64,000 bases of DNA from Spirochaetota bacterium (GCA_963663865.1 OY760686.1:3088590-3152589); one strand, 5' to 3'; positions 10,290-54,682 are shown, counted from the stretch's first letter. Made by a program: numbers and translations. Notes: generated by a model from the letters alone, not told the origin.

Positions 10290-10886
10290 ATGAAACTGGT
10301 CAACTCAGTATTTTTAATCTGCATAATATCAGCCGCAGCGTACGGACAGGCAACCGGCCCCCGCACACCTGCTGCTATCCCCGATGGTTACGGGAGCATA
10401 AAATGGGGCACCCCGCTCAGCAAGGCAAGGGAGGCTATTTCCGGGAAGCTGTACTACACGGACGACAAAACAGTAATCGTTTCAAAGGACGACGCGCTTG
10501 AGTACTATTACGGCTTTTTCTATACCGACCCGGCAAATACAGAAAAAGCTGTAGAAACAGCTGATGCCGGACAGGAGGCTGTCGATGAAGGCACGCTATA
10601 CTACGTTGCCCTCAAGTTCCCGTATCTTCGCCTTAATCAGGTCAGAGAAAAAATTGAGTCCAAATACGGCAAATCATCGCTCGAAAACATCAAAAAAAAC
10701 CGGGGTGCTGCAGCCTGGATGTCAGACAGTACTATTATTATCATGTGGGCAGATGAATACGAGGGAGAGCCTTTCTGCAGGCGGATCACCTATCTCTCGA
10801 GAGAAACAGCTAAAAAAGTCAACACCAACCAGGAGCGGGTATTCAACAAAACAGAAATAGATATTCTGAAAAAGCTGAATCCCTGA
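10290..10886 (+). CDS. secreted hypothetical protein
   Basis: N-terminal signal peptide MKLVNSVFLICIISAAAYGQ; no family recognised. Confidence 0.5.
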   Translation: MKLVNSVFLICIISAAAYGQATGPRTPAAIPDGYGSIKWGTPLSKAREAISGKLYYTDDKTVIVSKDDALEYYYGFFYTDPANTEKAVETADAGQEAVDEGTLYYVALKFPYLRLNQVREKIESKYGKSSLENIKKNRGAAAWMSDSTIIIMWADEYEGEPFCRRITYLSRETAKKVNTNQERVFNKTEIDILKKLNP

Positions 10887-10902: not shown

Positions 10903-13900
10903 TTATAGATGTGTGATAAAAACCGGAATTAGTCCAATGCCCTCATCAATCCTGTCGAGGGCTTTTCCAATCACAGTGCCTATTTTATCAAACGAGTCAA
11001 TCTTTCCCCTGATGCCGCAGCCGGGAGTATCAGACGTCACAATGAGATCTCCTGGATTTACTGGTCCCTTCCTCGCGTCCACCTTGCACATGACCCTCCC
11101 CGCAAGAGCCACAGGATATGCCTTCTGCTCATCACCGGAGTTGTTGATTACAAGCATGGGATTTCCGGCTACAATACCGACAACAGACTGTGAGTAGGGC
11201 GCCGAAGAGCGCTTTAACGCCGATTTCCCTGAATCCGAAACGACAAGCAGGTCGCCCGGTGATATATACTCAGTTTCTTCAACAACGAACATCTCTACTA
11301 TGCTTGCCGGATATTGCCCCTTTCCGTCTCCTGTTATTTTTACCTGCCCATCGAAGACAGATCTTCCATTAACAAGAAGGGCATCGCCGTTACCCGCAAG
11401 ATTAACGCTTTTATCGTAGTCGGAAAGCCTTCCGAAGCCGTCGGCAACCAGGGAAAAACCGTGCTCACTGGAAAAAACTCCGCCCGCACCGAACCTTGAC
11501 AGACCGAGAACGCCGCAGCCGGAAACACCGTTTTCTCCACCAGCAGACTGCCCCCTTACACCAACAAAACCTCCGTGCCCCACTACACCGTAGCTCTGAA
11601 CAGTTTTCGTGCTGAGAATGCCTGCCACACCGGCTACCCCGATAGAACCTGCTTCTTTAGAGGCATTTTGCCCATATATTACGGCTGAGCCGTCAGACGG
11701 CGGCGTAATATCCGGAAATGCTTCATTCCTTTCCTGCTTGATGCTGATTGTTCCCGAATGGCTTTTAAACTCATGAAGCAGGGGAGCATAGTCATGGGTA
11801 TGTTCGAGTGGTTCCCTCCGGTCATAAAGCCTGGGGTCATTCCCCTGGACGGCGGTTCCCTCCTTGTTTTCACCCTGCTGTGCAAGCCTTACAATTCCGG
11901 GCGTTTTTTCCGTCGCGGGTTTCAGTCTTCTGTCGCTACCCTGAACAGCAACTCCTTTCTTCTCCTCGCCATCCTCGCCGAGTTCAACTATCCCCCTTGA
12001 AATAGTAGTAGCCTCTTTCAGACGGCGGTCATTTCCCTGTACGACAACACCGGCCGCGTCCTCTCCGTCCTCTGCAAGCTCAACTATTCCCGGCGACAGA
12101 GTTGAGGCTTTACGAAGCCTTTTGTCGCTTCCCTGAACAGCTGCAAATGGTGAAGAATCCCCATCAGAAGCGAATCTCATTATACCGGCAGAATCTTCTG
12201 TTGCGTCCTTAAGTCTTTTATCATTGCCCTGGACAACCACTCCCGGTCTGTCCTCTCCATCCTCTGCCAGTTCCACAATCCCTCTGGAACCAGTCGTAGC
12301 ATCCCTCAATCGGCGGTCATTGCCCTGTACAACAACACCGGCCGCGTCCTCTCCGTCCTCGGCAAGCTCGACTATTCCGGGAGATAATGTGGTTGAGGGC
12401 CTGAGTCTTTTGTCGCTTGCCTGAACTGCTGTTAAGGGCTTTTCGGTCCCGTCAGGGGCAAACTGCATAATTCCCTTAAAGGTCTCTGACGCGTCCTTTA
12501 ATCGACGATCGTTTCCCTGAACAACAACGCCGGCCGCGTCTTCACCGTCCTCAGCAAGCTCGACTATTCCCCTGGAACCCGTAGTAGCGTCCTTCAATCG
12601 GCGGTCATTGCCCTGTACAACAACGCCGGCCGCGTCCTCTCCGTCCTCAGCAAGCTCGACTATTCCCCTGGAACCCGTCGTGGCGTCTTTCAATCGGCGG
12701 TCATTGCCCTGTACAACAACGCCGGCCGCGTCCTCTCCGTCCTCAGCAAGCTCGACAATTCCCCTGGAACCCGTCGTGGCGTCTTTCAATCGGCGGTCAT
12801 TGCCCTGTATAGCTACACCTTCAGAGCTTTCTCCATCTTCAGCGAGCTCAACAATTCCCTTGAAAGCTGTTGACGCATCGCGAAGTCTCCTGTCATCGGC
12901 CTGTACAACACATCCTATTGTGTTTTCACCGTTTTTCGCGAGTTTTACAATACCGAAGCTGCTGTCCGTTGCCTTTTGAATCCTGCTGTCATTTCCGGTG
13001 ATGACAGCGCTCCCGGTATACAGGCCGTCCGGGCAGAGCTTTACGATTCCAAAAGTCGAATCGGTCGCTTCAGAAAGCCTTGAATCAGAGCCCTGTACAG
13101 CGGTTCCGGGCTGGGTCTCTCTGTCATAGGCAAGCCTTACAATGCCATTCTTTTCCTCAGTTGCGGGCTTGAGCCTTGAATCCGAACCCTGTACGGCTAT
13201 ACCGGCTGAGTTATCTCCGTCCTCTGCGAGCTGTACTATTCCCTTAAATATCGTTGTAGCATCACAAAGCCTTCTGTCGCTTCCCTGCACTGCCGTTCCC
13301 GGCGAATCTCCCCCATCGGCCGCCAGCTTAACGATGCCGGCCTGAAAGGTTGAAGCATATTGCGGCATTCCTGAAGCGTTGTGAGCGTGCGAATAGTCAA
13401 ACAAAGCAGCGAATATTTCTAAGGACGCCAGTTCAATCGAGAAACCACCAGCGGTATCCTTAGCTCCTCTTCCCTCAAACCTTATGTATCGGACAGGGCA
13501 TATTTCCATATTCCAGGAATATCTCTTCATCGGCTCCGCTTTGAATGATTTTTCCTCAAAAAGCGGAAGGAACAATTCCCCGTCTGTGCTGATATCGACG
13601 TTGAATTTTTCTGGGAAAAGCCCCGAAGAAGCCCCAATAATTATTCTGTTAACGTGATACACCGCGCCAAGATCAATGAGCAGTGTTTCCAGGCCGCTTT
13701 TACCTCTTGAGGGCGACCGCCAGACAAGGTCATGCGCTCCCCTGAACAGATTTTCAGCAGAAGTTTCGGCCGAGGCCGAATCAGCGGTCACTGCCGCAAC
13801 CCCCGATATCCCCCCCGAAAAAGATGCAATTTTACAAACAGCCTTTCCGTCTTCACGGGCATTGAGCCCCGTCACGTATAGCTTATAAAACCTGTACTGC

Positions 13901-14244
13901 ACCGGCGGAAGCGGAAGAATATAGGGACTTCCGCTGCATCTGTATGCAGACTCTGATTTAAGAACATGCCACAGACTGCCATCGGTACTCGCTTCTATTC
14001 TGAAGTCGCGCGGAAAAGACTTCTCTTCGGATGGGACCGGAGCGATCTCTATGCTGTCTATTACAGGCGAATCCTTAAGATCAATAACCACGTATTCAGG
14101 CCTGCCGTCAAAGCCCTCTGAAGTCTGCCAGAATCCGCCCTCTTTCAACAGATTGCCCGCGGAATGAGCCGCATCCGACTCGGACGAGAAGGAGTGTATT
14201 GATGACTGATACTTCTGAGCTCTGCTTATGTTTATAAATTTCAT
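10903..14244 (-). CDS. large repeat protein: two discoidin (F5/8 type C)-like domains + about 16 phage-tail-fibre-like 32-aa repeats + Gly-rich C-terminal domain; no signal peptide
   Basis: 1113 aa single ORF. Discoidin-like segments EYVVIDLKDSPVIDSIEIAPV... and LLIDLGAVYHVNRIIIG.... Repeats of form ATTGSRGIVELAEDGEDAAGVVVQGNDRRLKD resemble the ATxxxxGIVxLAT..E tail-fibre repeat. Confidence 0.8.
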   Translation of the reverse strand: MKFINISRAQKYQSSIHSFSSESDAAHSAGNLLKEGGFWQTSEGFDGRPEYVVIDLKDSPVIDSIEIAPVPSEEKSFPRDFRIEASTDGSLWHVLKSESAYRCSGSPYILPLPPVQYRFYKLYVTGLNAREDGKAVCKIASFSGGISGVAAVTADSASAETSAENLFRGAHDLVWRSPSRGKSGLETLLIDLGAVYHVNRIIIGASSGLFPEKFNVDISTDGELFLPLFEEKSFKAEPMKRYSWNMEICPVRYIRFEGRGAKDTAGGFSIELASLEIFAALFDYSHAHNASGMPQYASTFQAGIVKLAADGGDSPGTAVQGSDRRLCDATTIFKGIVQLAEDGDNSAGIAVQGSDSRLKPATEEKNGIVRLAYDRETQPGTAVQGSDSRLSEATDSTFGIVKLCPDGLYTGSAVITGNDSRIQKATDSSFGIVKLAKNGENTIGCVVQADDRRLRDASTAFKGIVELAEDGESSEGVAIQGNDRRLKDATTGSRGIVELAEDGEDAAGVVVQGNDRRLKDATTGSRGIVELAEDGEDAAGVVVQGNDRRLKDATTGSRGIVELAEDGEDAAGVVVQGNDRRLKDASETFKGIMQFAPDGTEKPLTAVQASDKRLRPSTTLSPGIVELAEDGEDAAGVVVQGNDRRLRDATTGSRGIVELAEDGEDRPGVVVQGNDKRLKDATEDSAGIMRFASDGDSSPFAAVQGSDKRLRKASTLSPGIVELAEDGEDAAGVVVQGNDRRLKEATTISRGIVELGEDGEEKKGVAVQGSDRRLKPATEKTPGIVRLAQQGENKEGTAVQGNDPRLYDRREPLEHTHDYAPLLHEFKSHSGTISIKQERNEAFPDITPPSDGSAVIYGQNASKEAGSIGVAGVAGILSTKTVQSYGVVGHGGFVGVRGQSAGGENGVSGCGVLGLSRFGAGGVFSSEHGFSLVADGFGRLSDYDKSVNLAGNGDALLVNGRSVFDGQVKITGDGKGQYPASIVEMFVVEETEYISPGDLLVVSDSGKSALKRSSAPYSQSVVGIVAGNPMLVINNSGDEQKAYPVALAGRVMCKVDARKGPVNPGDLIVTSDTPGCGIRGKIDSFDKIGTVIGKALDRIDEGIGLIPVFITHL
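11800..13360 (-). repeat. tandem array of about 16 x 96-bp coding repeats (core of near-identical units 12440-12830)
   Basis: Directly visible; consecutive 96-bp units e.g. 12596-12691 and 12692-12787 differ by only a few bases. Confidence 0.85.
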
Positions 14245-14283: not shown

Positions 14284-14826
14284 CTATTGCGCCTTTAGCC
14301 GTATTCTCGGTTCAAAATAGCCGTCAGAGTTGTTTCCGTCTATTACAATCCTTGTTGGACTGACAATCAGGGTTCTTTGTCCATTTTTCTGCTTCACCAG
14401 CCTTCCCTTGAACAGAAAATAGGATGACTTTGTCTTAACGTACCCGGAAGTTATGTTTATGTATCTTGTCTGTGGAACCTTTTTCATCTCTGAAAGATTG
14501 ACCCTTATCGTCTGGTCATCTTCAAGCGTATAGATACCTCTAAAAACGAGAGCGTGAGTATTCAGCCTCAGCGTTATAACAGCCCTGTAATTTTTGTAGA
14601 ACCTGAACTCGTAGCCGTATCCGTCCGGATAAAAAAGCTGCCACACACCCCTTATTCCCTCAAAATCCAGTGGGATATTGTCTCCCTTATCCTCCGGTGC
14701 TTCTTCAACCAGAGGCTCAGTTTCAACTTCTTCAGCGGGCTTTTCCTTTATGCATGATGAAGCCGCAACAAAAATAAACAGAATTCCTGTTATTACAGCA
14801 AAGATATTCATTCGTCTTTTTAACAT
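14284..14826 (-). CDS. putative lipoprotein
   Basis: Signal peptide with lipobox (FVAASSC); 180 aa. Confidence 0.55.
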   Translation of the reverse strand: MLKRRMNIFAVITGILFIFVAASSCIKEKPAEEVETEPLVEEAPEDKGDNIPLDFEGIRGVWQLFYPDGYGYEFRFYKNYRAVITLRLNTHALVFRGIYTLEDDQTIRVNLSEMKKVPQTRYINITSGYVKTKSSYFLFKGRLVKQKNGQRTLIVSPTRIVIDGNNSDGYFEPRIRLKAQ

Positions 14827-15017: not shown

Positions 15018-15367
15018 GGGGACGATTTTGGTTTCGACTGCAATTGCTGGTCTTCAGTGGCATGCCGAGTATCCTGTCTTCTCGTAAAAAATGGCAGGAA
15101 TGATTTAACTGCAAACGACAACTTTGCACTAGCGGCTTAATCCCCGCTACGTCTCCGAAGGCTCCTGTCCTCTGGGATCTTCACGAGGCGTCATAATCAG
15201 AGGATAGCCAATGAACAGTCTCCCGGGTTCAGAGGTGAAATTTAAGGGAGAACGGCATGCAGGACGGTGCCTTTCCCGGCCCGCATACTGTAACAAAAGA
15301 ACAGGCTAAGCATGTAGAAGCTGTGGATTTGGATTGTAGGACGCGGGTTCGACTCCCGCCGTCTCCA
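15018..15367 (+). ncRNA. ssrA: tmRNA (transfer-messenger RNA), tag peptide ANDNFALAA
   Basis: 5' GGGGACGATTTTGGTTTCGAC and 3' GGACGCGGGTTCGACTCCCGCCGTCTCCA match conserved tmRNA acceptor/T-arm ends; internal reading frame GCAAACGACAACTTTGCACTAGCGGCTTAA gives ANDNFALAA then stop. Confidence 0.85.
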
Positions 15368-15379: not shown

Positions 15380-16021
15380 CTATTCCTCAAGAAATCCGGC
15401 TATATCCATAGTATCGGCAAACCTTCCGCCAACACGGCTAAGCAGGATTTTTTTTACTGAATCAGGAATGATTTCCTGGACATCCCTTGTTTCATTTTGT
15501 CTGTCCATGTAGATAATGTTGAGCTCAGAGTCAACTGCTACAAACATGCTGTACATATCAATGTATTGAAGTTCGGGAGAATAGAAACCGTCCACCTCAT
15601 AGATGACAAGAGCGTCGAGACCGCTGTCTGCCATGACTTTCATAAGAGCTTCGCGGTTCATTCTTAAAAAAAGATTAATAACACCTGTTGTTTTAAATTT
15701 CAAAAAGGATTTATTCTCAGAGTACTGGCAGAATTTTCCAAAAACAGCGTCGTACGAATAAACCGCTTCGGTCAGATTTTTGTCCTCAAGAAAGACAAAG
15801 GGCCTGCTCTCGCGGTATGCTCCCGCCCACTTCTGAAGCGAAAGCATTAGCTCCTCGCGCGGAAGCATTGTGCTTGCGGGGGTTCTCAATATTACACCGG
15901 CCTTGCTCACTGAAGAGAGCTTTGCCGAATCAGACAGCTCCTTCTTCACCCCGTAAGACGAACAACCGGCAGCAACCGAGAAAAGCACCGATACTATAAA
16001 TAATCGAAATAATGTTTTCAT
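15380..16021 (-). CDS. putative lipoprotein
   Basis: Signal peptide MKTLFRLFIVSVLFSVAAGCSS with lipobox. Confidence 0.5.
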   Translation of the reverse strand: MKTLFRLFIVSVLFSVAAGCSSYGVKKELSDSAKLSSVSKAGVILRTPASTMLPREELMLSLQKWAGAYRESRPFVFLEDKNLTEAVYSYDAVFGKFCQYSENKSFLKFKTTGVINLFLRMNREALMKVMADSGLDALVIYEVDGFYSPELQYIDMYSMFVAVDSELNIIYMDRQNETRDVQEIIPDSVKKILLSRVGGRFADTMDIAGFLEE

Positions 16022-16040
16022 TGTTTATTCCCTCTAATTT

Positions 16041-16841
16041 TCAATCAAGGAGGCCGAACACCTGTGGCGCTGCGTCCGTAAGGGCCCATGCGACAGGCTC
16101 ACTGGAAACACCGCCGTAATAATCGACCATGTTAAAATGCCCGAGCCAGGTTAAAAGATAAAAATCGATAAATGACGCAAAGAACAGGTCATTTTTTCTT
16201 GCAACGCCAGTCAACTCACTGAAATCGTTAGCTACCTCCTGAACCTGCGCTTTTTTTCTTCTGAGAAGCACATCCCTGAATATTGAGCGGTCCCGCTGCA
16301 GAAGTTCAGCCAGCTCATGGTCTGAAGGGAACAGCTCTTTCCATTCAACATCATTCCAGAAGGTTCTCATCAGTCTGCAATAGAGCAGACGCCGGTCGCC
16401 TTCAACACCGGAAACCTTCACTCGCCCCTTCGATTTCTCAATCAGGCCGCAGACCTTCATTATCATTGCCATCTGCCTGAGATATATATCGGCGAGGCAA
16501 TGGTCGATTTTTTCATGAGAAGAACACTGGCTGATAAAACTGTCGGCTGAAATACTGTAGTATTCATCCGGCAGAAGACATCCCCTGTCATGCGAACACT
16601 CCCTGCCGTCAGCAGTTGCCGCAATAAAACTACAGAGCCTTACGGCCAAGCAGTTCTCCGCTTCCGCCGGAGCCGAGTCCCGGTCTGAAACGATATAGGC
16701 GTGGTAGGAGGAAGCTGCGTCAAAACGCTCCATCACTGACGGCACAGCCGACTGCGACGGATAACAGGCAGAAAAATCCACTCCCGCGGTAAAAAAAGAC
16801 ATTTTTTTTCTTTTTGCTGTGATGTAGCCGTTATCTGACAT
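16041..16841 (-). CDS. hypothetical protein
   Basis: 266 aa ORF, Cys/His-rich central region, no family recognised. Confidence 0.45.
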   Translation of the reverse strand: MSDNGYITAKRKKMSFFTAGVDFSACYPSQSAVPSVMERFDAASSYHAYIVSDRDSAPAEAENCLAVRLCSFIAATADGRECSHDRGCLLPDEYYSISADSFISQCSSHEKIDHCLADIYLRQMAMIMKVCGLIEKSKGRVKVSGVEGDRRLLYCRLMRTFWNDVEWKELFPSDHELAELLQRDRSIFRDVLLRRKKAQVQEVANDFSELTGVARKNDLFFASFIDFYLLTWLGHFNMVDYYGGVSSEPVAWALTDAAPQVFGLLD

Positions 16842-17213
16842 TCAACCTTCCGCCGTTAAAAACCGAACATAATTATACAATGCGACAGGGAAGCGTCCGC
16901 CCTGCTATCGTGCAAGTCTGAAGCTTTCGCAACACTATACGAATTAATTAATTTAGTAAATTAATTTTTTATTTCTGACAAAATAATTTGCATATTTACT
17001 ATTAATCCTATTAATTCGATTACCATTAAACTTCCGGCGCTGCCTTTCCACTGCTGTGGATTAATAAAAAAAATTCAGACATCCCTAACAGCCTTGATCG
17101 CATGCGGTACAGGCTGAACGATATCTGAATCCGATTTACTTCAAACAGTACTATCACTGCACGTCTTAACTGTCTTGTTGATCAACGCCTATGAGTCAAC
17201 CAAATTTCTCCGC

Positions 17214-17921
17214 TTAACCCAACAATGCTGAAACCGCATCTCGCTGTATGTTCCCCTGCGTGGCAAGTGCGTTTGCAGGTGAACCGCCGATTGCAGCGCC
17301 TACAGCAGAAGCGGCCTCATAGGGGTTCTCAACATCTACGTTATAGGTCTCAACAGCTGAGGTCATAACAGCGGCCGCCTCTCCAGCCGCTGCCTCATAG
17401 GCGGAGTAGGTATCACCCAGACTGGACTCCAGATCAGCAAAAAACTCCGGGTTTGGCCTTTCGCCTGCCGCAAGTCCCGATGCCCCGAAACGCAGCGACA
17501 CAATGGCTGCTTCAGGTGAAGGTATATCGAAGCTCACCGATGCTGCCGCCGGCGACAAAGCAGGTATAACTATGGAGGTTCTTAACTCCGGAAGGTTCTC
17601 GGGAAGCTGGCTCGACGCCTCAGCAACCGCAGCAGAATCAAGCCTGCCCGTTCTTACAGCGTCAGCGGCTGCATTCTTCAGCTGTGAAGAAACCACTATA
17701 GCCCTCTGTACAATGCTCATGGAGGCCTGCGCGACACTGAGCGCCTCGCCTAAAGCCCTCTCAACAGAAAGCCTTGAAAGGATTGCCTGATTATAATCCC
17801 GCCCATTACCAGCCGAATCAGGCCCGACTGCAGCTGAAGCCGCGCTGGAACGTACAGGAGTTCTCGGACTGTTCAAAGCCCTCCGGGCAGAAACATCGCC
17901 AATATCCGTATTGATCTTCAT
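17214..17921 (-). CDS. Ala-rich protein with flagellin-like N- and C-termini (degenerate flagellin-like)
   Basis: N-terminus MKINTDIG resembles the flagellin MxINTN start. A.LSVAQASMSIVQRA resembles the end of the flagellin N-domain. C-terminal ...GNIQRDAVSALLG resembles the flagellin C-terminus. Only 235 aa. Confidence 0.45.
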   Translation of the reverse strand: MKINTDIGDVSARRALNSPRTPVRSSAASAAVGPDSAGNGRDYNQAILSRLSVERALGEALSVAQASMSIVQRAIVVSSQLKNAAADAVRTGRLDSAAVAEASSQLPENLPELRTSIVIPALSPAAASVSFDIPSPEAAIVSLRFGASGLAAGERPNPEFFADLESSLGDTYSAYEAAAGEAAAVMTSAVETYNVDVENPYEAASAVGAAIGGSPANALATQGNIQRDAVSALLG

Positions 17922-18001
17922 GTTACCCTCCCTGTGCCCGTAATAATAATAAGAACTGAAAATGCCAATGTCAAACTGAAATTTTCAGCTTTTTCGATTG
18001 C

Positions 18002-19582
18002 TCAGAAATTACAGCTTGCGCCGGCGTCAAAACGCCTGTCGTAAACACCTTTGCTGCTGTAAACCAGCTCTGCCCTGAGATTGCATGACAGAGAAGAATT
18101 GGCTTCGAGCACTATAAGGATTGCATTGATATTAAGAGCTTTTCTGAACATGCTTCCAGTGCTGACTGACCCGGCAAAGGGCGCCGGATTGAGAAATACA
18201 GGGTTATGGGCAGATGCTTCGACTCTGATATAGTCAAACCTCATTCGGACAAGCTCCGGTTCCGTCCACTTGAGCGCGCACCCTGCTGACCAGGCTGCCT
18301 CCGCCCCTCTCCTCTTCTGAAGGGATGAGCTCATTAACACGGACAGCCCCCGGCGGAAAAGCGCCGATCCTGAGAGCTTGAACTGATGTGAGACTGCCAG
18401 CCCATCCCCGTCAGTCACCAGGTGAACATATTTCATCTTCGCTGAAAATGATTCAGATTTGCGCTCAAGGAATGCCTCTTCCCGATGAGCAGAACGCAGA
18501 TATGCTGATTGCCCTGATGCGGAATTGTTTACTTCAGCTGAAGAACTCAGCCCGGCATTGAGTTTTCTCGAAAGCTTAAGAAGCAATGCCCCTTCATATC
18601 TCGCTGAGGGGGCGCCCGGATCGCTGCTGACGGGAGCGAAAAAGCCCTGCCTCATCCCTTCACCAGAGACGGACAACGTATAAAAGCCCGGGCTGATTAC
18701 AAGTCCCCCGGAAAACCCCAGGCTGTCCGAGCGTCCGGCGGCGCCTGACTCCTGCAGACGAAAGGCACATCCGGCCTCAAACCATGCGGTAAATGTTTTG
18801 TCGCTGTACCCGGCAAAGAGGCTTTCTCCTCCATAGCCCCAGTGAGCAGCGCTGCCGTCTCCGCTCCCGACTTGCATTTTTCTCATCGTGTAATCGAAAA
18901 CGCCTCCTCTCAGAAAGCACAGCTGAATAGAAAAGTTTTTTAAATACAACAGGGCCAGAACTATACCTGAGTCCAACAGCATGACCGGCTCAGTGTACTT
19001 TTCTGAGGGATTAAGCTTCGTATTGATACCCGATATTGATACGGTGGTACGCCCGCTGTCAAAGTCACCGCCGGGGAAATAGCGCCTCCTGCATGAAATA
19101 AATGGGTACAGGGCTATTCTGTTCTCATCTGTCCCGAACGAGATCCCGGCGGCAGCCCCGGCCATCAAATAGAGAGGATTAGCGGTGGCCGGGGCTGCGA
19201 TCACTGCAGAGCGGCCCGCCCTCCTGCGGGGCGAAAAAGCGTCAGCGCTGAAAAAGCTGCGTTTCCCGAGGATGAGCCCTGTTCCGGAGGAAACCGTGTA
19301 TCCGCCAAGAGCGATCTCAAAGCCGGGCAGCGCATCCCCCAGATAGAGGCTCCCCGCCCATGTCCTGTCAGCTTCTGAAGGGACATCGGCATAACCCGCG
19401 CTGAAATGCGAATCCTCCGATAGATTGAGCTTTACCAGAGACCTGAAATACTCCTTCTCTGACGCATCGTAATCTACATAGTCTCTCCTGAACTCCGTTT
19501 TAATGAGATACTCGGGATACCGCTCAGCCTCAGCACCTGCGGCTGCCAGAATAAGCGCTGCTGTTACAGATAGGAGGAACAC
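18002..19582 (-). CDS. putative outer-membrane beta-barrel protein
   Basis: Signal peptide, alternating amphipathic pattern, C-terminal Phe (ASCNF); 19-bp overlap with upstream gene. Confidence 0.5.
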   Translation of the reverse strand: MFLLSVTAALILAAAGAEAERYPEYLIKTEFRRDYVDYDASEKEYFRSLVKLNLSEDSHFSAGYADVPSEADRTWAGSLYLGDALPGFEIALGGYTVSSGTGLILGKRSFFSADAFSPRRRAGRSAVIAAPATANPLYLMAGAAAGISFGTDENRIALYPFISCRRRYFPGGDFDSGRTTVSISGINTKLNPSEKYTEPVMLLDSGIVLALLYLKNFSIQLCFLRGGVFDYTMRKMQVGSGDGSAAHWGYGGESLFAGYSDKTFTAWFEAGCAFRLQESGAAGRSDSLGFSGGLVISPGFYTLSVSGEGMRQGFFAPVSSDPGAPSARYEGALLLKLSRKLNAGLSSSAEVNNSASGQSAYLRSAHREEAFLERKSESFSAKMKYVHLVTDGDGLAVSHQFKLSGSALFRRGLSVLMSSSLQKRRGAEAAWSAGCALKWTEPELVRMRFDYIRVEASAHNPVFLNPAPFAGSVSTGSMFRKALNINAILIVLEANSSLSCNLRAELVYSSKGVYDRRFDAGASCNF

Positions 19583-20847
19583 AGATTTAACACCTTCTCC
19601 TTGACAGCTCCTTTGAGCCCGAGCTCATTCAGGCCGTTCCTCCTCTGCACCCGGGTTTTCCTCTGAAGTATATCAATAACCTCAAGCGCGTTGACAGGGT
19701 TAAGCCCGGCATTGAGCAGACCGGAAAAGAGCGAGCTCTTCTGATGCCCTGTCATCTCGCTTCGCCCGCTTTTTCTAAAGCTGCGACGCTTTTCACGCTC
19801 CGGCTTACGCTCCTTCTCAAAACCATAAGCATGGTTATAGAGAACGCCGATATCCCCCCCGTCCATGCCAAGCTGAATGAGAGCATCTTCACTGACAGGG
19901 CCTATCAGCCGCCTGTATTTGATTAGCCTCTCCCTGAAAAGCACCGGAACCGCTTCCATCCCCATTATCTCTTCATCGGAGCATGTCCGTATATCAACCT
20001 TCCGGGGCAGCTCTGCGTCCAGCTCTGTATTGAGCCCTGAATAGCTTAGTGAATCAAAGCTCCCGCCGCCGAAGCGGAGTGAAACACCGGCCGTATGCGT
20101 GCTTCCAAGATAGGGGTGCCTGAGCAGTGAATATGTAAAGGAAAGACTCGAGACGTTAACCTCAACTCCCAGGCCGTAGGACAATGTCTCCCTGGAATAT
20201 CCGGCCCTGAGCAGTATGTACTGCTGAATACGTACTGAGACTGTAAAGGTGTTGATATAGCCGTAAGCTGACGATGTGATGTTATACGAGGCGGCGAGGC
20301 CCTTAACCGGAACAAATGACGCGCCCGCGCTCCATTCCGGGGAGAGCAGAGAGCTTCCCTGGAAGGAACGAATGTTCTCACATGCCCCGGCAAGCACCAG
20401 CCTTCTTGACAGCGGGATATTGACGTAAGCGCTCAGGTCAGCCTCTCCCTCCAGGCCTCCATCCTCAAATTTCACCCAGGAATACCCCGCGCTTAGCCCG
20501 GCCGCCAAAAAACCGGCCGGCCGGAATCCCGCGCCGATGGAAATCTCATTTTCACGGTACCCTTCGGCTCCGAAGTTTTCCCACGAAAACAGAAAACCCG
20601 CTCCGGAAACCGGAAAGAGCGCCTGCATGTTTCCGCATAAAAGCCCTGTGCCGGTGTAAGGGCGCCCCCCTGCCATGCTGATGCGGGGCCCGGGCAGTCC
20701 CGCGCTGTACGAGGTATTGAGCACCGCTGATCCCGAGAATCCCTCTGAGGCGGCTACGGTATACGGGAACATGCCTTCAAAACAGGCAGGCCTGTACTCA
20801 AAGGCCGTCACGAGTGCGGCCGCCAGAACAAGCATGGAGACACTCAT
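19564..20847 (-). CDS. putative outer-membrane protein with C-terminal ComEA-like helix-hairpin-helix domain
   Basis: Start set at MSVSMLVLAAALVTA signal peptide; its ATG overlaps the upstream gene stop as ATGA. C-terminal VDIRTCSDEEIMGMEAVPVLFRERLIKYRRLIGPVSEDALIQLGMDGGDIG aligns by eye with the ComEA competence-protein helix-hairpin-helix domain. Confidence 0.5.
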   Translation of the reverse strand: MSVSMLVLAAALVTAFEYRPACFEGMFPYTVAASEGFSGSAVLNTSYSAGLPGPRISMAGGRPYTGTGLLCGNMQALFPVSGAGFLFSWENFGAEGYRENEISIGAGFRPAGFLAAGLSAGYSWVKFEDGGLEGEADLSAYVNIPLSRRLVLAGACENIRSFQGSSLLSPEWSAGASFVPVKGLAASYNITSSAYGYINTFTVSVRIQQYILLRAGYSRETLSYGLGVEVNVSSLSFTYSLLRHPYLGSTHTAGVSLRFGGGSFDSLSYSGLNTELDAELPRKVDIRTCSDEEIMGMEAVPVLFRERLIKYRRLIGPVSEDALIQLGMDGGDIGVLYNHAYGFEKERKPEREKRRSFRKSGRSEMTGHQKSSLFSGLLNAGLNPVNALEVIDILQRKTRVQRRNGLNELGLKGAVKEKVLNLCSSYL

Positions 20848-21857
20848 CTTTTCCGCCCGAGTACGATGAGAAACTTCTTCCTCTGGGCCCTTTTCCGCTC
20901 CCGGGATACAGCCTCTACCAGCACGGGATATATCCCGGCCGGCAGGGTCGCCACCGAAGGGCTCTCCCAGTAGAGACTGAAATATCCGGGGGCAATATCC
21001 CTGGCAAGGTCCGTGGAATAGAGCATCACTCCAGTCGATGAAAACACCCTCAATCTGAGGCTGCATTCCTCATTCACGAAGAGAGGCACCTCGACAGATG
21101 CGGTTGCCGCGTCCCTTCGCACGTTGATTCTGCCTTTTCTAAGCTTAAAAACATCTCCAGCTGGTTCTCCGGAGCTGATTATGTTTTCCCTGCCCGGTGT
21201 CTGAAACCTGGTTACGGCAAAATCAGCAGAGCTGTTGCAATCGGGAACCGGCAGGCGTGAAACAGAAAAGTGCCCCTTCAGGCCGTTAGCCCCTATATCA
21301 ATGCTGCTCTTCTGGACATCATCCGCTGCAGTCCATTGACCCGCGGCCGAGGCGCAGCGGATATAGCCTGTAACTGCTTTATTGGGAGTTCCGTCCATGT
21401 TTGAATACGCCGCAAAATCAATGATTCCGCCGTTTTCCGGATCGTCATCAGTATCTATAGAAACAACACCTTCCGAATTCCATAGAGCAGCAGAGTAGTT
21501 GGAACAGCTGACTTCCAGAATACCGTTTCCATTAATGTCGCCGCTCAGATCCGATTCAGTCGCTGAGGCGCCCTCGTGCATATAAACTACTATGAACCTG
21601 TCGTCCCAGGGTGTGTCCGGGCTGTCCTCACTGCGGATAGTGACTGGTTCCAGCGACAGCCGCATATTGCTGCCGTAGTAGCAGGTCACGAAGAGCGGAG
21701 AAACATCCATGCTCTCCCCCGGCCCGCCGGAAAAGCAAAGTTCAACCCAGTCGTTTTCCGTATTTGTTACGAACTCGTTGATTGACAGACCCGCCAGCGC
21801 TTCTTCACTGAAACAGACACACAGGACAAGGGCGATAAGGAGCAGTTTTGTTTTCAT
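20844..21857 (-). CDS. secreted lamin-tail-domain (LTD) protein with C-terminal Ig-like region
   Basis: Signal peptide; LSINEFVTNTENDWVELCFSG matches the LTD INE...DWVEL signature. Confidence 0.6.
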   Translation of the reverse strand: MKTKLLLIALVLCVCFSEEALAGLSINEFVTNTENDWVELCFSGGPGESMDVSPLFVTCYYGSNMRLSLEPVTIRSEDSPDTPWDDRFIVVYMHEGASATESDLSGDINGNGILEVSCSNYSAALWNSEGVVSIDTDDDPENGGIIDFAAYSNMDGTPNKAVTGYIRCASAAGQWTAADDVQKSSIDIGANGLKGHFSVSRLPVPDCNSSADFAVTRFQTPGRENIISSGEPAGDVFKLRKGRINVRRDAATASVEVPLFVNEECSLRLRVFSSTGVMLYSTDLARDIAPGYFSLYWESPSVATLPAGIYPVLVEAVSRERKRAQRKKFLIVLGRKR

Positions 21858-21944
21858 GACGCCTCCGTCAGTTAAACGGCCGGCGGAAGGCAGGAATAAA
21901 ATTTAAAAAAATAACTCGACATACTTCATGCCGGGTTTCTTCTG

Positions 21945-23093
21945 GTGCAAACGCCTAAAAAGTGTAATGGGATGAGCGGAAAGACAAAGACATTCATGGG
22001 TTCGAAGATTAGTCCGAGATATCTCGGCGCATTTGCTTCAGGAATCAGGGATATTATCGCGTCGTCAGACGACCGAAACCAGGCCCTGGCCCGCGTGTCC
22101 TCAGTCTCAGTTGAGGCCTTCGGACGCGAAATCAGCCCCACAGTTCTTGAAAAGCCGGACAGGCTTTCCATATCGTTCCTTGAACTGCTTGACCAGATCG
22201 TTTTTGAGATCAACGAAAATCAAAGCGATTCCGAAACAATAAAGGACTACATCGCCGAGAACCTCTTCAAAAGAGTGACTATCTTCAGCGAAGCGATGAC
22301 GGAAATCTCCGCTTACAGCAGGAGCCTGCAGTCCAGGCCGCTCAGCGTTGATGACACCCTCATAATATCACACTTCCGAATGAATGAATTTGTGCCGGAG
22401 CTGATTAACGAGTTTGCCGAAAACCCCGCGCTTCAGAAACACATTCTCAGAGCGCTGCTCCGTTTTAATCCTGATGAAACTGTATCCTTCATGTCAGAAA
22501 TAGCCTCAGGACCCTACTGCCCTGAGGCCCGGGCGACCGCGCTTGCTTCGCTGAAAAAGTCCTCCGCTGGAACGGAGATTCTCGCGTCCCTCGAAGAAAA
22601 CGGGAAGTCCTCGCTGCTCCGTTACGCTTCCCTTTTTAATGCCGCCAATATCCCCGGGAATATAAAGCCGTACACTCCTGAAACCTGCGCGTTCGCGTCA
22701 TATCTGATTGAAGCCGACAGCGCACTCATAAATGACATTCCGTCTCTCATCTGGTTTTGCGGGATTTTCGAGTCGTTCCCGGACGCGCCGGGAAACAGCG
22801 AGAACCCGAAATACTCGGGAATTTTCCGGGCCCTGACTCATGTCCTCGTTGAGCTTCCCCGAACGCTCCTCAAGGACGCAGTCAAGTCAGACATCGCGCT
22901 AACCGCGCTCACCTCCTTTATTGACTCGCTTCCGAGATCAGTATTCAGCAGAATAGCCGTAGCCCTTGACCCGCTGGGCAGCTCCTTTCATGACCCGGTA
23001 GGCGCTCTTGTCGAAAGCGGCAAAATAGTTTTGGACGGCCCGTCTTCCAACACGCTCAGCTACCTCATGCGTGACACCGCTTCCGCTTTTTAA
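21945..23093 (+). CDS. hypothetical protein (alpha-helical)
   Basis: 382 aa ORF; no family recognised. Confidence 0.45.
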   Translation: MQTPKKCNGMSGKTKTFMGSKISPRYLGAFASGIRDIIASSDDRNQALARVSSVSVEAFGREISPTVLEKPDRLSISFLELLDQIVFEINENQSDSETIKDYIAENLFKRVTIFSEAMTEISAYSRSLQSRPLSVDDTLIISHFRMNEFVPELINEFAENPALQKHILRALLRFNPDETVSFMSEIASGPYCPEARATALASLKKSSAGTEILASLEENGKSSLLRYASLFNAANIPGNIKPYTPETCAFASYLIEADSALINDIPSLIWFCGIFESFPDAPGNSENPKYSGIFRALTHVLVELPRTLLKDAVKSDIALTALTSFIDSLPRSVFSRIAVALDPLGSSFHDPVGALVESGKIVLDGPSSNTLSYLMRDTASAF

Positions 23094-38212: not shown

Positions 38213-39130
38213 TCAGGAAAGCAGACCATCCTCTACTACAACGAGGACGCCCCGTTCCATCAAACGCCGTACCGGCCCGTAGTCGGTCACTGGATTTCCT
38301 ATTATGCTGACGTACTCCAGAAACGGCATGTTTTCCAGAACAGAAATATCTTCTATCATATTAAAACTGATATCAAGCTCCTTGAGATTCTTTAACCCGC
38401 CGAGCGGATCAATATTTTCAATCCTGTTATCTGAAATATACAGAGACTCGAGTTCAATCAATTCCGCGATTGGACCTGTTCGTATGATCCCGTTGCCGGA
38501 TAAATTCAGGGCCGAAATATACGGGCACTTTTCCAAACCCTCCAGAGAGTTTATTCCATAATCAGACAGGTCGATTTCGCCGTCAAGGTTCAGCAAGTCC
38601 GCATCAGAGAGATCAATATCCAATCCGCCTACAAAGTACCTGTGCAGGGCCTCAAAAAAGCTGATTCCGTCATCTTCTTCATCCTCTTCAAAATACAAAT
38701 CGTCATCTTTAATATCTGAAGCTGCCTGCTCTGCATAGCCGAAGTCAGAGGCGGAATAGCTGAACGATTCCTCAAAAACTACCGGCTCGGCCTGGCTTTC
38801 ACCTGGCGAACCGGAAGGCAGATATAACGCTGCAAGCCTCGCCAGACCCTCCGAATCCGATTTTTCCATCAGCTCATCAGCTTTTTTATGAATAAATACA
38901 TATCTGTCAGGATGGAAACGCCTTACAGCGAGGCTGAAGAGCTTTTGAGCGCTGATATCATGACTGCTTTCATCCCCGGGAAGATAATATCGAAGCCTTC
39001 TAAAATCTTTTCGCTTGTAAGAAGCAATAATATCTATCGTGGTTTTCTTAAGGTATTCCGGTGTTACTCTGTTTTTAAGCTCTTTATAATAAAAATCGCC
39101 TGATTCTGAGAATTCAGCCATTAAGGACAT
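38213..39130 (-). CDS. cytoplasmic leucine-rich-repeat protein with degenerate N-terminal J-domain
   Basis: LRR units LxxLxLSxNxI x5-6 at C-terminus; AQKLFSLAVRRFHPDR resembles J-domain helix II + HPD; acidic linker; no signal peptide. Confidence 0.55.
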   Translation of the reverse strand: MSLMAEFSESGDFYYKELKNRVTPEYLKKTTIDIIASYKRKDFRRLRYYLPGDESSHDISAQKLFSLAVRRFHPDRYVFIHKKADELMEKSDSEGLARLAALYLPSGSPGESQAEPVVFEESFSYSASDFGYAEQAASDIKDDDLYFEEDEEDDGISFFEALHRYFVGGLDIDLSDADLLNLDGEIDLSDYGINSLEGLEKCPYISALNLSGNGIIRTGPIAELIELESLYISDNRIENIDPLGGLKNLKELDISFNMIEDISVLENMPFLEYVSIIGNPVTDYGPVRRLMERGVLVVVEDGLLS

Positions 39131-39165
39131 CCTCCATAAAAAAAACAGTAAAACCGGGAAGCCGG

Positions 39166-40149
39166 TTACTTTCGGGATTTTTTAAAAAAATCTTCGAACA
39201 GGTTCCTGTCAATTTTAATGAGCCTTGTCCGTATTTCAGTAAGATTTTCAAAGGAGTAGCTCTGAAACTCGAAGTAGTCAATGAGCCACAGGTACTTGTT
39301 TATAAGGCGGGGCACAACATTTGATTCCTCAATCTGGTCTCTGTTCATTCGCTGATAGTTCATTTCCAGCCTGTAAATATCGTCCTTAATGGATTCGACC
39401 TGCCTCTCCTGAAGGTTTTTTCTCACATAGAACACATCCTCAATAAATCCGTAGACAGGAATCCATTCCCTGACATCTCCCTGACCGGGACAACGGGCGA
39501 GGACAATCTCCTTAAGGCGGACTACCGGCTCGGCGGTTATCATGCTTAAATCAATATCAGAAGGATTTACAAAGAATGCTTCCTTAAAAAGCCACAGACT
39601 TTTGGGGATATCGCCTGTATGGAAAAAAGCTTCGCCAAGAATTGAAAGAAGCCTGGCATTGCTGTTATACGACCTGCCGGCATATTCGAGGGTCTCTATT
39701 GCCTTCTCATAATCGCCCAGCTTAAGAAAGCACTCGCCCAGGTTGAGAAGTAAATCAAAGTTGTCTGCGGTCTCTTCCTGATTCAGAAAAGCCTTTCGGT
39801 AATTTTCAGAGGCTCTGTAAAAAACATGTTTCATCGCGGCCCGATAGGCTGAAGAGTTATACATGCGGGATTCGGCCGCGTACTCTTCAAAAGCCTTCCA
39901 CTCCGCCATCAGGAAGTCAGCTGTTTTTTTTCCCTCAGGTAATGACTCAAACTCCGGCACCCGGTTCTGCCAGAAGCGGGACGTCCTGTAAGACTCTATC
40001 AGGCCCGGATAGTCAGGATTGGCGGACATCAGCCTGTCCAGCAGAAGCACGGCCTGCCCGAATCTGCCTTCCTCAATAAGCGAATAGACCTCTCCGGCTG
40101 AATTCAGCACCGGATCATCCGAAAATGTCATCTGACCATTATTATCCAT
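39166..40149 (-). CDS. TPR-repeat protein
   Basis: Multiple 34-aa helical repeats with W/L/G/Y/A/F/A/P pattern. Confidence 0.6.
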   Translation of the reverse strand: MDNNGQMTFSDDPVLNSAGEVYSLIEEGRFGQAVLLLDRLMSANPDYPGLIESYRTSRFWQNRVPEFESLPEGKKTADFLMAEWKAFEEYAAESRMYNSSAYRAAMKHVFYRASENYRKAFLNQEETADNFDLLLNLGECFLKLGDYEKAIETLEYAGRSYNSNARLLSILGEAFFHTGDIPKSLWLFKEAFFVNPSDIDLSMITAEPVVRLKEIVLARCPGQGDVREWIPVYGFIEDVFYVRKNLQERQVESIKDDIYRLEMNYQRMNRDQIEESNVVPRLINKYLWLIDYFEFQSYSFENLTEIRTRLIKIDRNLFEDFFKKSRK

Positions 40150-52527: not shown

Positions 52528-54240
52528 TCAAGGAGCTTTTGCACTATTTTCTGATATGATTTCAGTGCCAGCATATGGCCTTGCTGATTTCCTGTCAGAG
52601 AGTTTTGACTCGTGATTATACGGTGTTCCGGGTCGATATGTGTCGTAGGCGCTGACAGCAAAATAATAAAGCACTGTGTTCCTGAGCAATGGATAGGCCA
52701 GTAAACCCCGACTGTCTGCCCTTAGATTCTCTTCAATAACACGGTTGTCAAGCGACAGGTAGATATAATCTCCCTTTTGATAGGTATTATCAATCTTCTT
52801 TCCGTTTGCGAATGTGATAATCCCCTCATATCTGTCCGTTGATGTGCTGTAGTAAAGCCTGTAGCCCCCGATATCATAGTCAGTATTCTTTTTCCAGCGC
52901 AGTAAAACATTTTCATCACCGGCGGAAACAACCTCAAAAAACATCGGCGCCCCCGGCGGTAAATCCGGCTGGTACTTAAGCCTTATGTTTGACAGCTCGG
53001 GCGCACTTTTTCCGTCGGGTGAAACAGCAAGATTTGCTCTCCACTGATAATATCGTCCCCTCAGAGGTTTTTTATCCTCCCCAACCGTTTTAAAAATCTC
53101 TTTCTGACTGTTGGAGATACGGTACCACCTGGGTTGATTGTCTTTCTCAGCGAACAGGCTGTCTGATGTGCGAAATTCCATCCAGATAAAGGTTCCATCC
53201 GGTAATTTCTCATCCCAATCAAAAGAGACGACCCTGGTTCCAAAGTCATTAAATGAATATACCGGGCTTGTTACGGTTCCGCCGGCATTTTTGGGCTCCC
53301 TGCCATTTAGTTTCCGTGGAGCAAAAGCTGTTGTTTTTATCTGATATCTTTCTGCTGAAACAGCAAGAGGCTGAAGGCTTATTTTCAACTCATCAATAAG
53401 ACCGCAAAACCCCCTGCCGATTATAGCCGGAGGAAAATCTCTGTTGATAACAGCCTGATCTGATACAACTCCAAATCTCGGCGTGTAAGGCGCGGTGTCA
53501 GGTGTGCCGTCCGCAGTTAAATATTGAGTTTCCTGTTCTTTCCCGTCAAGGTACGAAGACAGCCTTCCGTCAGACCGGTCAAAACTCAAAACATAATGGT
53601 ACCATTTATCCGCATGAATCGAAGTGACTCCGTGATGCTCTACATTCTTTTTAAATCCGCTTTTATCCTCAAATATACCATAAAAACCGCTAAATACTCT
53701 ACCTCTGTGGAGCTTAATTTCTATCCCCTGAATACTTCCGTTTAGTGATCCAAGACGTGAAAAGATAACCGCGCCATCCCGGATAGTACTCGGATTAATT
53801 CTAAATTCTACAGTGAAAGACCCAAGATCGCCTGAATTGCCAAGCCACAGGCTTGCCTCGGGCTTTAGTACAACTTCATGATCGTCTCTATAGAAAAGTG
53901 CACATCCGCTGCCATGGGCCCCCTTTGCCTTCGTAAAACTGTATTCCGCCGATAGTACCTGATATCGTGATGTATCATCATGATGCAACGTGACAGGCTC
54001 CCCGTCAAAGGACAGTGACATATCAAGAACGCCCGATTCATACTGCTTTCCATAAGATATATCAGAAACAGTATATCGGACAGAATCGCTTTGGCCTCCT
54101 GCAGCCTGAATCCCGTTGAGACCGCTCTGAGGGACCCGGGCGAAGTGAACTGTGCAGGCTTTCCCATCCTCCGCAGCAGGATAAAGGGGAGACGCGAAAG
54201 GCATACCCCATAGTATAATAAGTATTAAAACCCTGCGCAT
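52528..54240 (-). CDS. secreted protein with concanavalin/LamG-like jelly-roll and FN3-like regions
   Basis: Start set at MRRVLILIILWGMPFASPL (signal peptide) to avoid overlap with rpiB; beta-rich, weak LamG-like pattern. Confidence 0.45.
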   Translation of the reverse strand: MRRVLILIILWGMPFASPLYPAAEDGKACTVHFARVPQSGLNGIQAAGGQSDSVRYTVSDISYGKQYESGVLDMSLSFDGEPVTLHHDDTSRYQVLSAEYSFTKAKGAHGSGCALFYRDDHEVVLKPEASLWLGNSGDLGSFTVEFRINPSTIRDGAVIFSRLGSLNGSIQGIEIKLHRGRVFSGFYGIFEDKSGFKKNVEHHGVTSIHADKWYHYVLSFDRSDGRLSSYLDGKEQETQYLTADGTPDTAPYTPRFGVVSDQAVINRDFPPAIIGRGFCGLIDELKISLQPLAVSAERYQIKTTAFAPRKLNGREPKNAGGTVTSPVYSFNDFGTRVVSFDWDEKLPDGTFIWMEFRTSDSLFAEKDNQPRWYRISNSQKEIFKTVGEDKKPLRGRYYQWRANLAVSPDGKSAPELSNIRLKYQPDLPPGAPMFFEVVSAGDENVLLRWKKNTDYDIGGYRLYYSTSTDRYEGIITFANGKKIDNTYQKGDYIYLSLDNRVIEENLRADSRGLLAYPLLRNTVLYYFAVSAYDTYRPGTPYNHESKLSDRKSARPYAGTEIISENSAKAP

Positions 54241-54253
54241 TTTATCTCCTGAA

Positions 54254-54682
54254 TCATTCGAGTTCCATAATTTTGTTAACTCTTTTCTCGTGCCTGCCTC
54301 CATCAAAGGGAGTATCAAGCCACCTTCTGACTATGCTGAAAGCGAGATCTTCTCCGATAACCCTTGCTCCCAGGGCAAGAACGTTTGAATTGTTATGCCG
54401 TTTAGCCATTTCAGCCATAAACTCATTAAAGCACAGGGCAGCCCTGATGCCCTTTACCTTGTTGGCAGCTATTGATATTCCTATTCCCGTACCGCAGATT
54501 ACAATTCCACAATCCGCCTTGCCTTCCGTTACAAGCCTCCCAACCTCGGCTGCATAATCTGGATAATCACATGATTCATTTGAATATGTACCGGCATCAA
54601 GAAACTCACATTCATCAAAGTTCTCCACAATCCTGGTTTTTAAATGGATACCGGCATGATCTGATCCGATGGCTATCTTCAT
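54254..54682 (-). CDS. rpiB: ribose-5-phosphate isomerase B
   Basis: MKIAIGSDHAG...CGTGIGISIAANK motifs. Confidence 0.85.
   Translation of the reverse strand: MKIAIGSDHAGIHLKTRIVENFDECEFLDAGTYSNESCDYPDYAAEVGRLVTEGKADCGIVICGTGIGISIAANKVKGIRAALCFNEFMAEMAKRHNNSNVLALGARVIGEDLAFSIVRRWLDTPFDGGRHEKRVNKIMELE

Follow-up and report, generated by a model that had tools for sequence, protein, structure and literature searches.

A putative trimeric fibre with N-terminal lectin domains, assembled from phage tail-fibre modules and encoded by a vertically inherited stand-alone gene of Leptospirales-type spirochaetes

Phage-derived fibres that have been kept by bacteria are known mainly from tailocins and injection systems, where they are patchily distributed, fast-evolving and encoded within clusters. 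The repeat of T4 gp34 and gp12 has been solved as the 'mixed alpha-beta fibrous domain' of a trimeric fibre, in which a conserved Gly starts a beta-strand (PMC5537660). In the fibres or spikes of T4 (gp37), P2 and R-pyocins, three HxH motifs hold one iron ion on the trimer axis (PMC6116203). Domain D4 of phi29 gp12 is an auto-chaperone that aids trimer formation and is afterwards removed (PMC13317679; PMC4690869). Here, we describe a gene in a 64,000-nucleotide (nt) stretch of DNA from a Spirochaetota bacterium (GCA_963663865.1 OY760686.1:3088590-3152589; the whole stretch is called the window below), whose product resembles these modules one after the other. The gene (10903..14244, minus strand) encodes 1113 amino acids (aa) plus a stop codon and comprises, from the N-terminus, two discoidin domains, an HxH motif, 16 fibre repeats of 32 aa, a second HxH motif, a Gly-rich segment and a predicted gp12-type auto-chaperone domain. 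We consider it probable, with some room for doubt, that the protein is a self-assembling homotrimeric fibre of phage tail-fibre modules, that its gene has become fixed in the chromosome of Leptospirales-type spirochaetes and is inherited vertically, and that it does not belong to a phage or tailocin encoded alongside.

The repeats make up the putative shaft of the fibre (11824..13359, minus strand; aa 296-807) and follow the consensus ATTxxKGIVELAEDGEDxxGVAVQGNDRRLKD. A first-pass annotation of this DNA had counted about 16 copies; there are exactly 16, with G-I/V-V/M anchors at a constant spacing of 32 residues. The motif G-I/V-V/M-x-L/F-A was found in 16/16 repeats at constant spacing, including the conserved Gly and the [IV]-x-x-L-A strand. 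Tandem Repeats Finder detected periods of 96, 192 and 288 nt in the gene, the last of them reflecting a duplicated three-repeat block (repeats 10-12 and 13-15). Repeats 7-9 share one protein sequence and, at the DNA level, agree in 94/96 and 86/96 positions; the periodicity is therefore far beyond chance. When the whole protein was searched against PDB sequences, the only match was an engineered tandem MtrB/TRAP chain (E 0.0075), which was rejected as one periodicity matching another.

The likeness of the repeat to that of phage tail fibres, also proposed at first pass, was borne out by database comparisons. The repeats matched the PHROG tail families phrog_910 ('tail collar fiber', 6.5e-13), phrog_1197 (1.2e-8) and phrog_972 ('tail fiber proximal subunit', gp34 type, 1.5e-5). 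A tblastn search of 50,697 GenBank phage genomes gave a sole match, gp34 of the T4-like phage RB16 (4e-4), whose repeats (KTATETRRGIARLATTAEVN...VIVTPKKL) align in register with those of the window (DATTGSRGIVELAEDGEDAAGVVVQGNDRRLK; pairwise 4e-14 without composition correction). The exact window variant of the repeat, e.g. 'ASTTVKGIVELATDGESTAGVVVQGNDSRLSNARTPSSHG..H', is present on IMG/VR viral contigs in 1-2 copies per protein, in proteins of 800-2000 aa, and one IMG/VR protein carrying it was read as tailspike-like. Judged by their sequence, the shaft repeats can be classed as a shortened version of the mixed alpha-beta fibrous repeat of T4 gp34/gp12. They are a variant and not a canonical copy, because the Ser/Thr-Pro ('VTP') that canonically precedes the axial helix is absent from the window repeats and V-Q-G-N-D-R-R-L stands there instead. 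The Pfam model PF03406 (Phage_fiber_2, threshold 22 bits) gave no match with the window protein, and relatives scored 17.1 and 10.4 bits. What is unusual in this shaft is the uninterrupted 16-fold array together with the exchange of 'AVTPxxL' for 'VQGNDRRL'.

Both ends of the array are marked by an HxH motif. Motif 1 (H286-A-H288; 13381..13389, minus strand) is located just N-terminal of the repeats, and motif 2 (H815-T-H817; 11794..11802, minus strand) lies just after them, in 'NDPRLYDRREPLEHTHDYAPLLHEFKSHSG'. Motif 1 is invariant in 29 aligned family members, as are H815, H817, H824 and H829. In viral fibre proteins, the repeat unit ends with 'NDSRLSDARTPxxHG..H' at the position of motif 2. 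By analogy with the iron-binding fibres and spikes introduced above, we regard motifs 1 and 2 as candidate metal sites on the trimer axis, which would pin the shaft at both ends.

The region after the repeats had been annotated as a Gly-rich C-terminal domain. It is real, though composite: a His-rich linker with HxH motif 2 (aa 808-860) leads into a segment with 24% Gly and GVxGxxxxGxxGV-type motifs (aa 861-975; 11320..11664, minus strand) and then into a folded domain of 138 aa (aa 976-1113; 10906..11319, minus strand). The Gly-rich segment and the C-terminal domain form one module that is common to many bacterial proteins. An AlphaFold2 monomer model of aa 800-1113, based on a 14-sequence alignment, reached a predicted local distance difference test (pLDDT) score of 37, and the fold of the Gly-rich segment was thus not predictable as a monomer. 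The last 152 aa (aa 962-1113, 81 diverse sequences) were modelled with a pLDDT of 88.4 and a predicted template modelling score of 0.83. This model matches the fold of the gp12 C-terminal fragment, Foldseek agreeing in PDB and BFVD, and the next structural matches are trimeric phage capsid-decoration proteins. The fold search thus points to a phage module at this end too, namely the intramolecular chaperone (Peptidase_G2 type) of phi29 gp12. In profile searches with the C-terminal sequence, gp12 was the best PDB match (E 0.043) and obtained an hhalign probability of 71%; both alignments run across the gp12 cleavage site. Only 19% of residues are identical between the window domain and phi29 gp12.

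The cleavage site itself appears degenerate. The window motif P-A-S981-I-V-E984-M-F (11287..11310, minus strand) aligns with S691-D692-F-A-E695-Y-F of phi29 gp12, which is cut between S691 and D692 (the solved cleaved fragment 3gqh begins with DFAEYFE), and with A-D-C-A-E-x-F of the wider superfamily. The Glu and Phe are kept in the window protein, and the Asp is replaced by S981. Across the family, this position is occupied by N in 62, G in 29, S in 9 (window included) and D in 2 sequences, vs D in 123/137 members of the wider superfamily. In those relatives with 8 repeats that were examined (P0131, P0139, P0149 and P0186), the motif is further degraded (e.g. DCIARYF) and the Glu is lost. D692 and E695 of phi29 gp12 reportedly have catalytic roles, as Xiang et al. 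are said to have described in 2009. Since the cleavage Asp is replaced in the family, the chaperone-like domain is probably not cut by the gp12 mechanism; it probably still nucleates the trimer and is retained afterwards.

When the C-terminal 314 aa were compared with 1.84 billion representative sequences, 19,369 clusters were found at E<=1e-3, most of them sharing only the last ~135-270 residues. The consensus of this superfamily reads ...ADCAExF...EPGTVMV...AYDKRVAGVVSGAG...GKVYCKVDA...GDLLTTSxTPGHAMKA...GKAL...GLIPILVALQ. A tblastn search of the 50,697 GenBank phage genomes gave no match to the C-terminal domain, and a pattern-based scan of 2.9 million IMG/VR contigs detected it at only 5 loci, one of which (L104) was examined and had a context that is not clearly phage. 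The superfamily is very large and mostly cellular. Superfamily members that were looked up in the clusters are annotated solely as 'hypothetical protein'. Their lengths range from ~200 to 2900 aa; among the sampled members (P0133-P0269; alignments A3-A6), Pfam gave weak Peptidase_G2 matches in 11/60, plus other domains in a few, and ten members that were read carry no signal peptide.

The opposite end of the protein consists of two discoidin (F5/8 type C, CBM32-like) domains, as already recognized at first pass. Pfam F5_F8_type_C (PF00754) matches in two stretches with 4.9e-20 and 72.4 bits (gathering cut-off 28.2), and PF22633 scores 38.4 bits (cut-off 27.8). Domain 1 covers aa 1-145 (13810..14244, minus strand), with the best PF00754 stretch at aa 20-139 and PDB profile matches starting from residue 1 or 11; domain 2 covers aa 146-290 (13375..13809, minus strand). 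A family profile matched tandem discoidin/CBM32 structures in the PDB over aa 1-290, including neuropilin b1b2, BF3579 and CBM32. Pfam matches to XRCC1_N and Laminin_N were set aside, as they overlap the stronger discoidin match, and weak matches to Fibrinogen_BP (below threshold in relatives), BDV_P10, DUF5907 and others were dropped. Within the 16-repeat family, conservation is lowest in domains 1 and 2 (mean pairwise identity 0.40 and 0.41) and highest in the repeats (0.63-0.72).

The absence of a signal peptide, stated in the first-pass annotation, was confirmed by a simple hydropathy test (not SignalP): the maximum over 12 residues within the first 60 aa of the window protein is 0.1, and three neighbouring genes with signal or lipoprotein peptides, used as controls, reach 2.5-2.9. 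By the same test, no hydrophobic N-terminal segment was found in 120 + 87 homologues, the maximum among the 120 family members being 1.78. With the discoidin domain beginning around residue 1-20, a leader would find no space. The ATG, preceded at 7 nt by a good ribosome-binding site (GGAG), is already the most upstream in-frame start of the open reading frame (ORF). An adhesin exported by the Sec or lipoprotein route, or a type I (RTX) or trimeric-autotransporter adhesin with an overlooked export signal, would fit a large repetitive protein with lectin domains and envelope-protein neighbours. Against it stand the N-termini just described, with their clear neighbour controls, the start codon, and a C-terminus that is modelled as a folded phage chaperone domain. 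Neither a YadA-type anchor nor another export domain was found with Pfam and NCBIfam (the latter gave nothing above threshold on the window protein), and a GG.G.D pattern search for the RTX motif GGxGxD and the Pfam RTX models found no match either. We regard such an adhesin as largely refuted and very improbable. Cell-wall-binding repeats and a cryptic signal peptide, named at first pass as outcomes contrary to its view, were looked for and not found. A novel adhesin class, which had also been proposed, is possible.

To place the gene in its lineage, we collected its homologues. The protein database contains more than 385 of them, which align over their full length, and the best 120 are 47-62% identical and 991-1130 aa long. 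All homologues with a named source come from Leptospirales-type spirochaetes, and those named among the best 120 are all from Spirochaetota metagenome-assembled genomes (MAGs). By a crude count, most of the homologues in the 16-repeat family have 13-16 repeats. In a survey of one genome per species (185,579 species), at least 185 matches were obtained, all in uncultured Spirochaetota/Leptospirales. Across 84 related loci, the gene for a ~200-aa secreted protein follows immediately downstream in convergent orientation in ~55, a thioredoxin gene lies within 10 kb in 43, and a homologue of the 180-aa gene found upstream in the window lies upstream in ~25. The conserved neighbours of the fibre gene are the 198-aa secreted protein, thioredoxin, HtrA and PBP1. 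In rearranged loci the 198-aa gene moves together with thioredoxin, so its adjacency is probably a matter of synteny rather than function. Upstream neighbours are not universally conserved, with two different sets in different subclades, and it was thus not possible to assign the fibre gene a partner.

A sister form of 835-867 aa with ~8 repeats was found in Leptospira interrogans (108 member sequences, 170 contigs), L. noguchii, L. kirschneri, L. santarosai and L. weilii, as well as in many saprophytic Leptospira species and in Leptonema and Leptospiraceae MAGs; every Leptospira clade sampled has it. The order of two discoidin domains, repeats, HxH, Gly-rich segment and C-terminal domain was read directly in five of these 8-repeat relatives, which are annotated merely as 'discoidin domain-containing' or 'carbohydrate-binding protein'. 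The window family is ~40% identical to a Leptospira-type member (P0131) over ~63% of the P0131 query. The L. interrogans protein P0316 (838 aa) shows 52% identity to P0131 in a full-length alignment and lacks a signal peptide. Its gene lies on a replicon of ~350 kb (chromosome II), between parA-parB-HTH_36 and metF, near the partition locus. The gaps to its neighbours are 27 nt and 11 nt, which is operon-like, and it stands upstream of a haem-biosynthesis cluster (L102/L103 10001..12517). We found no literature on the fibre family or on the function of the Leptospira orthologue.

Homologues throughout the lineage, near-constant length, recurring synteny and the 8-repeat orthologue of Leptospira all argue against an orphan phage gene and mark the fibre gene as an old host gene that is passed on vertically and whose product keeps its shaft while its head varies. 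The words 'orphan' and 'standing alone' of the first-pass annotation, taken to mean a stray or recently captured gene, therefore do not hold for a syntenic gene present in at least 185 species genomes, with 50-60% identity, a near-constant length and an 8-repeat orthologue throughout Leptospira. The same evidence bears on the idea that the gene is a true orphan fibre left by a recently acquired prophage. A transfer-messenger RNA (tmRNA) gene, a common integration site, lies 770 bp away at 15018..15367. Genomic islands integrate at the 3' end of ssrA, whereas the fibre gene is on its 5' side. The GC content of the fibre gene (0.48-0.53) is unremarkable vs the window range of 0.37-0.55. The gene order recurs in distant relatives (the 180-aa homologue upstream in ~25 loci, the 198-aa gene and thioredoxin downstream), and orthologues exist throughout the whole lineage. 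Synteny and distribution refute a recent prophage origin, to which we give practically no credence. As to the tmRNA gene itself, it lies on the plus strand and encodes the tag peptide ANDNFALAA. A relative (L001) has a stretch of ~550 bp without genes (7661-8213) at the corresponding place, which suggests that the tmRNA gene may be syntenic there.

The protein could also serve in trans as the receptor-binding fibre of a tailocin or an extracellular contractile injection system, or of a gene-transfer agent or prophage, encoded elsewhere in the genome. All three non-lectin modules are of phage type, and proteins of particles that are released by lysis normally do without a signal peptide. However, of 30 other window ORFs scanned with Pfam, none was recognized as belonging to a phage, tailocin or injection system, in line with the first-pass annotation, and tail, sheath, tube or baseplate genes were likewise not found among the Pfam-annotated genes of five homologous loci; the remaining related loci were compared for homologues of window genes. 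Conserved housekeeping synteny across 84 loci, the lineage-wide occurrence and the conserved length and shaft are the reverse of the pattern in particle fibres, which evolve fast and as mosaics. The N-terminus is discoidin from residue 1, and a recognized region for docking to a baseplate or tail was not seen there, such regions being diverse. RB16 gp34 was the sole match in the 50,697 phage genomes, and a closer relative is not in that collection. A part supplied in trans thus seems quite improbable to us. The link to contractile injection systems drawn at first pass is likewise not sustained, given that no such genes were found nearby, no baseplate-attachment region was recognized and the distribution is lineage-wide and not patchy.

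The protein might instead remain inside the cell, as a cytoplasmic fibre or scaffold or as a factor that acts only after lysis, with discoidin domains that bind an internal or self ligand. None of more than 200 homologues has a signal peptide, secretion genes are not linked to the gene, and in L. interrogans it lies beside parA-parB and HTH_36 near the partition locus of chromosome II. On the other side, the discoidin/CBM32 structures that were matched are extracellular or glycan-binding (neuropilins, coagulation factors, CBM32 of glycoside hydrolases), phage-fibre modules are built for extracellular stability, and the most often conserved neighbours are envelope proteins (the secreted 198-aa protein, a lipoprotein, HtrA and PBP1). 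These observations are not decisive, and we consider an intracellular role unlikely, though far from negligible.

Returning to the trimeric fibre as the reading we prefer, its assembly could proceed as follows. Because the short-form gp34/gp12 repeats are shared with viral tail-fibre proteins, the protein is expected to be a homotrimer with six lectin domains at one end. The C-terminal domain, whose modelled fold resembles the auto-chaperone that aids trimer formation in phi29 gp12 (PMC13317679), would set three chains in register. The Gly-rich segment and the 16 repeats would then zip towards the N-terminus into an intertwined shaft, whose length may be tens of nm by a rough estimate from T4 fibre dimensions. 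The HxH triplets flanking the array, which are invariant in the family, would lie on the three-fold axis and bind metal, as in T4 gp37 and R-pyocin fibres. Two discoidin/CBM32-type domains are present at the N-terminal end of each chain, which would make six per trimer. This end, which is the fastest-evolving part, with the shaft as the most conserved one, would serve as the ligand-binding head. The chaperone domain would probably be kept as a C-terminal cap, the gp12 cleavage Asp not being conserved. As the weakest step, the protein would act as a glycan-binding fibre or adhesin outside the cytoplasm, which it would reach by a route that needs no Sec signal.

Several points weigh against this reading. 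Trimerization is deduced from three separate modules, each of which has homologues among trimeric phage parts. Support from sequence for the gp12-type domain is weak, as seen from the E-value and hhalign probability given above, and its assignment comes mainly from the predicted structure; Pfam PF11962 (Peptidase_G2) gave no match with the window protein and weak matches with 5/14 family members (best 1e-4) and 11/60 superfamily members (best 1.8e-5). The suggestion that the domain is not cleaved is soft, as it draws on the catalytic roles reported for D692 and E695. An export signal is absent and an export system is not linked to the gene, which makes the extracellular location an assumption. 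Finally, the polarity is unlike that of a classical phage fibre, in which the receptor-binding tip adjoins the chaperone domain, and it might instead be the Gly-rich domain that actually binds.

Going one step further, we tentatively propose, as a possibility that we think may well be wrong, that the ancestor of the Leptospirales-type lineage domesticated a phage tail fibre, which became a host organelle. This would be a free-standing trimeric lectin fibre with a retained, non-cleaving cap and signal-less export, used for attachment to glycans or for masking of phage receptors, and its shaft would have been tuned in steps of whole repeats (8 in Leptospira, 13-16 in the lineage of the window). 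If this were true, its glycan targets could be the cell's own envelope, neighbouring cells or the biofilm matrix, or host tissue in the case of pathogenic Leptospira.

The immediate surroundings of the gene in the window are as follows. The 198-aa protein gene (10290..10886, plus strand) is convergent with the fibre gene; its product has a signal peptide and no Pfam family. On the other side, 39 nt upstream of the fibre gene, lies an ORF for a lipoprotein-like protein of 180 aa (14284..14826, minus strand; MLKRRMNIFAVITGILFIFVAASSC...). A terminator-like site was not seen in the 39-nt gap, so a common transcript of the two genes is possible. Relatives such as L001 have two further genes, for an alpha/beta-hydrolase and a 129-aa membrane protein, between the 180-aa-type gene and the fibre gene; both are missing in the window. 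The 30 other ORFs that were scanned are housekeeping genes or genes without assigned function, among them those for PBP1, HtrA, thioredoxin, phosphoenolpyruvate carboxykinase (PEPCK) and CCA-adding enzyme. Beyond the tmRNA gene, seven ORFs in a row (15380..23093; 213-526 aa) have no Pfam match (15380-16021, 16041-16841, 17214-17921, 18002-19582, 19564-21066, 20844-21857 and 21945-23093) and are followed by a gene for a protein with a VWA domain (23097-24743). Several of these ORFs were found again near the fibre gene in 10-21 related loci. Farther away, a leucine-rich-repeat protein (305 aa) adjoins a tetratricopeptide-repeat protein (327 aa) at 38213..40149 (minus strand), and 52528..54318 (minus strand) encodes a protein of 596 aa that contains a Laminin_G_3 (concanavalin-like lectin) domain; all three are putative surface or binding proteins. 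At 54001..64000, the GC content drops to 0.37-0.39 vs 0.43-0.55 in the rest of the window. This region encodes PEPCK and an HDOD/HD protein and is not obviously foreign.

The locus places tail-fibre building blocks in a single stand-alone gene that is kept across a spirochaete lineage including the agent of leptospirosis, and neither the fibre nature of the product nor its chaperone domain is annotated in databases. If the protein is exposed on the surface, it would be a candidate adhesin or antigen of pathogenic Leptospira that can be tested genetically in L. biflexa, and it would raise the question of signal-less export in spirochaetes. The family of the combined Gly-rich and chaperone module counts more than 19,000 cluster representatives and merits description; Pfam has no dedicated model for it, and its Peptidase_G2 matches were weak and confined to a third of the sampled members.

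The window repeat agrees with that of T4 gp34/gp12 in register and in its key residues, [KD]-A-T-x-x-x-x-G-[IV]-x-x-[LI]-A...E/G...[VI]-x-x-x-x-x-L. The unit is 32 aa long vs 33-47 aa in the phage proteins, with 'VQGNDRRL' in place of 'AVTPxxL', and is present in 16 uninterrupted copies vs few in phage proteins (1-2 of the exact variant on viral contigs). The window protein also lacks a virion-attachment N-terminus, and its gene is chromosomal, stand-alone and lineage-wide. With D4 of the phi29 pre-neck appendage (tailspike) protein gp12 (MEROPS/Pfam Peptidase_G2, PF11962) it shares the fold, according to the model, but it misses the Pfam threshold, and the Asp that follows the scissile bond in phi29 is Ser in the window and Asn, Gly or Ser in the family. 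Like the fibres of R-type pyocins, P2-type phages and T4 (gp37), the window family has HxH motifs associated with a fibrous shaft, here invariant and at both array ends, with metal binding as a prediction. In those fibres the lectin-like binding domain is C-terminal, whereas the window lectin domains are N-terminal. Two consecutive F5/8-type-C domains are also found in neuropilin b1b2 and in the CBM32s of bacterial glycoside hydrolases; in the window protein, a phage-type fibre takes the place of an enzyme or receptor as their fusion partner, and a signal peptide is missing. The 'discoidin domain-containing' proteins of Leptospira (P0316) agree in architecture and in the lack of a signal peptide but have ~8 repeats vs 16 and a further degraded cleavage motif, and the gene is on chromosome II by parAB and metF. 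Each module is thus of a known kind (discoidin, gp34/gp12 repeat, HxH, gp12 auto-chaperone fold), although strict membership in Pfam Phage_fiber_2 and Peptidase_G2 failed. New is their combination, with N-terminal lectins on a phage-type fibre, a 16-fold array and a probably non-cleaving cap, in a stand-alone core gene of a bacterial lineage.

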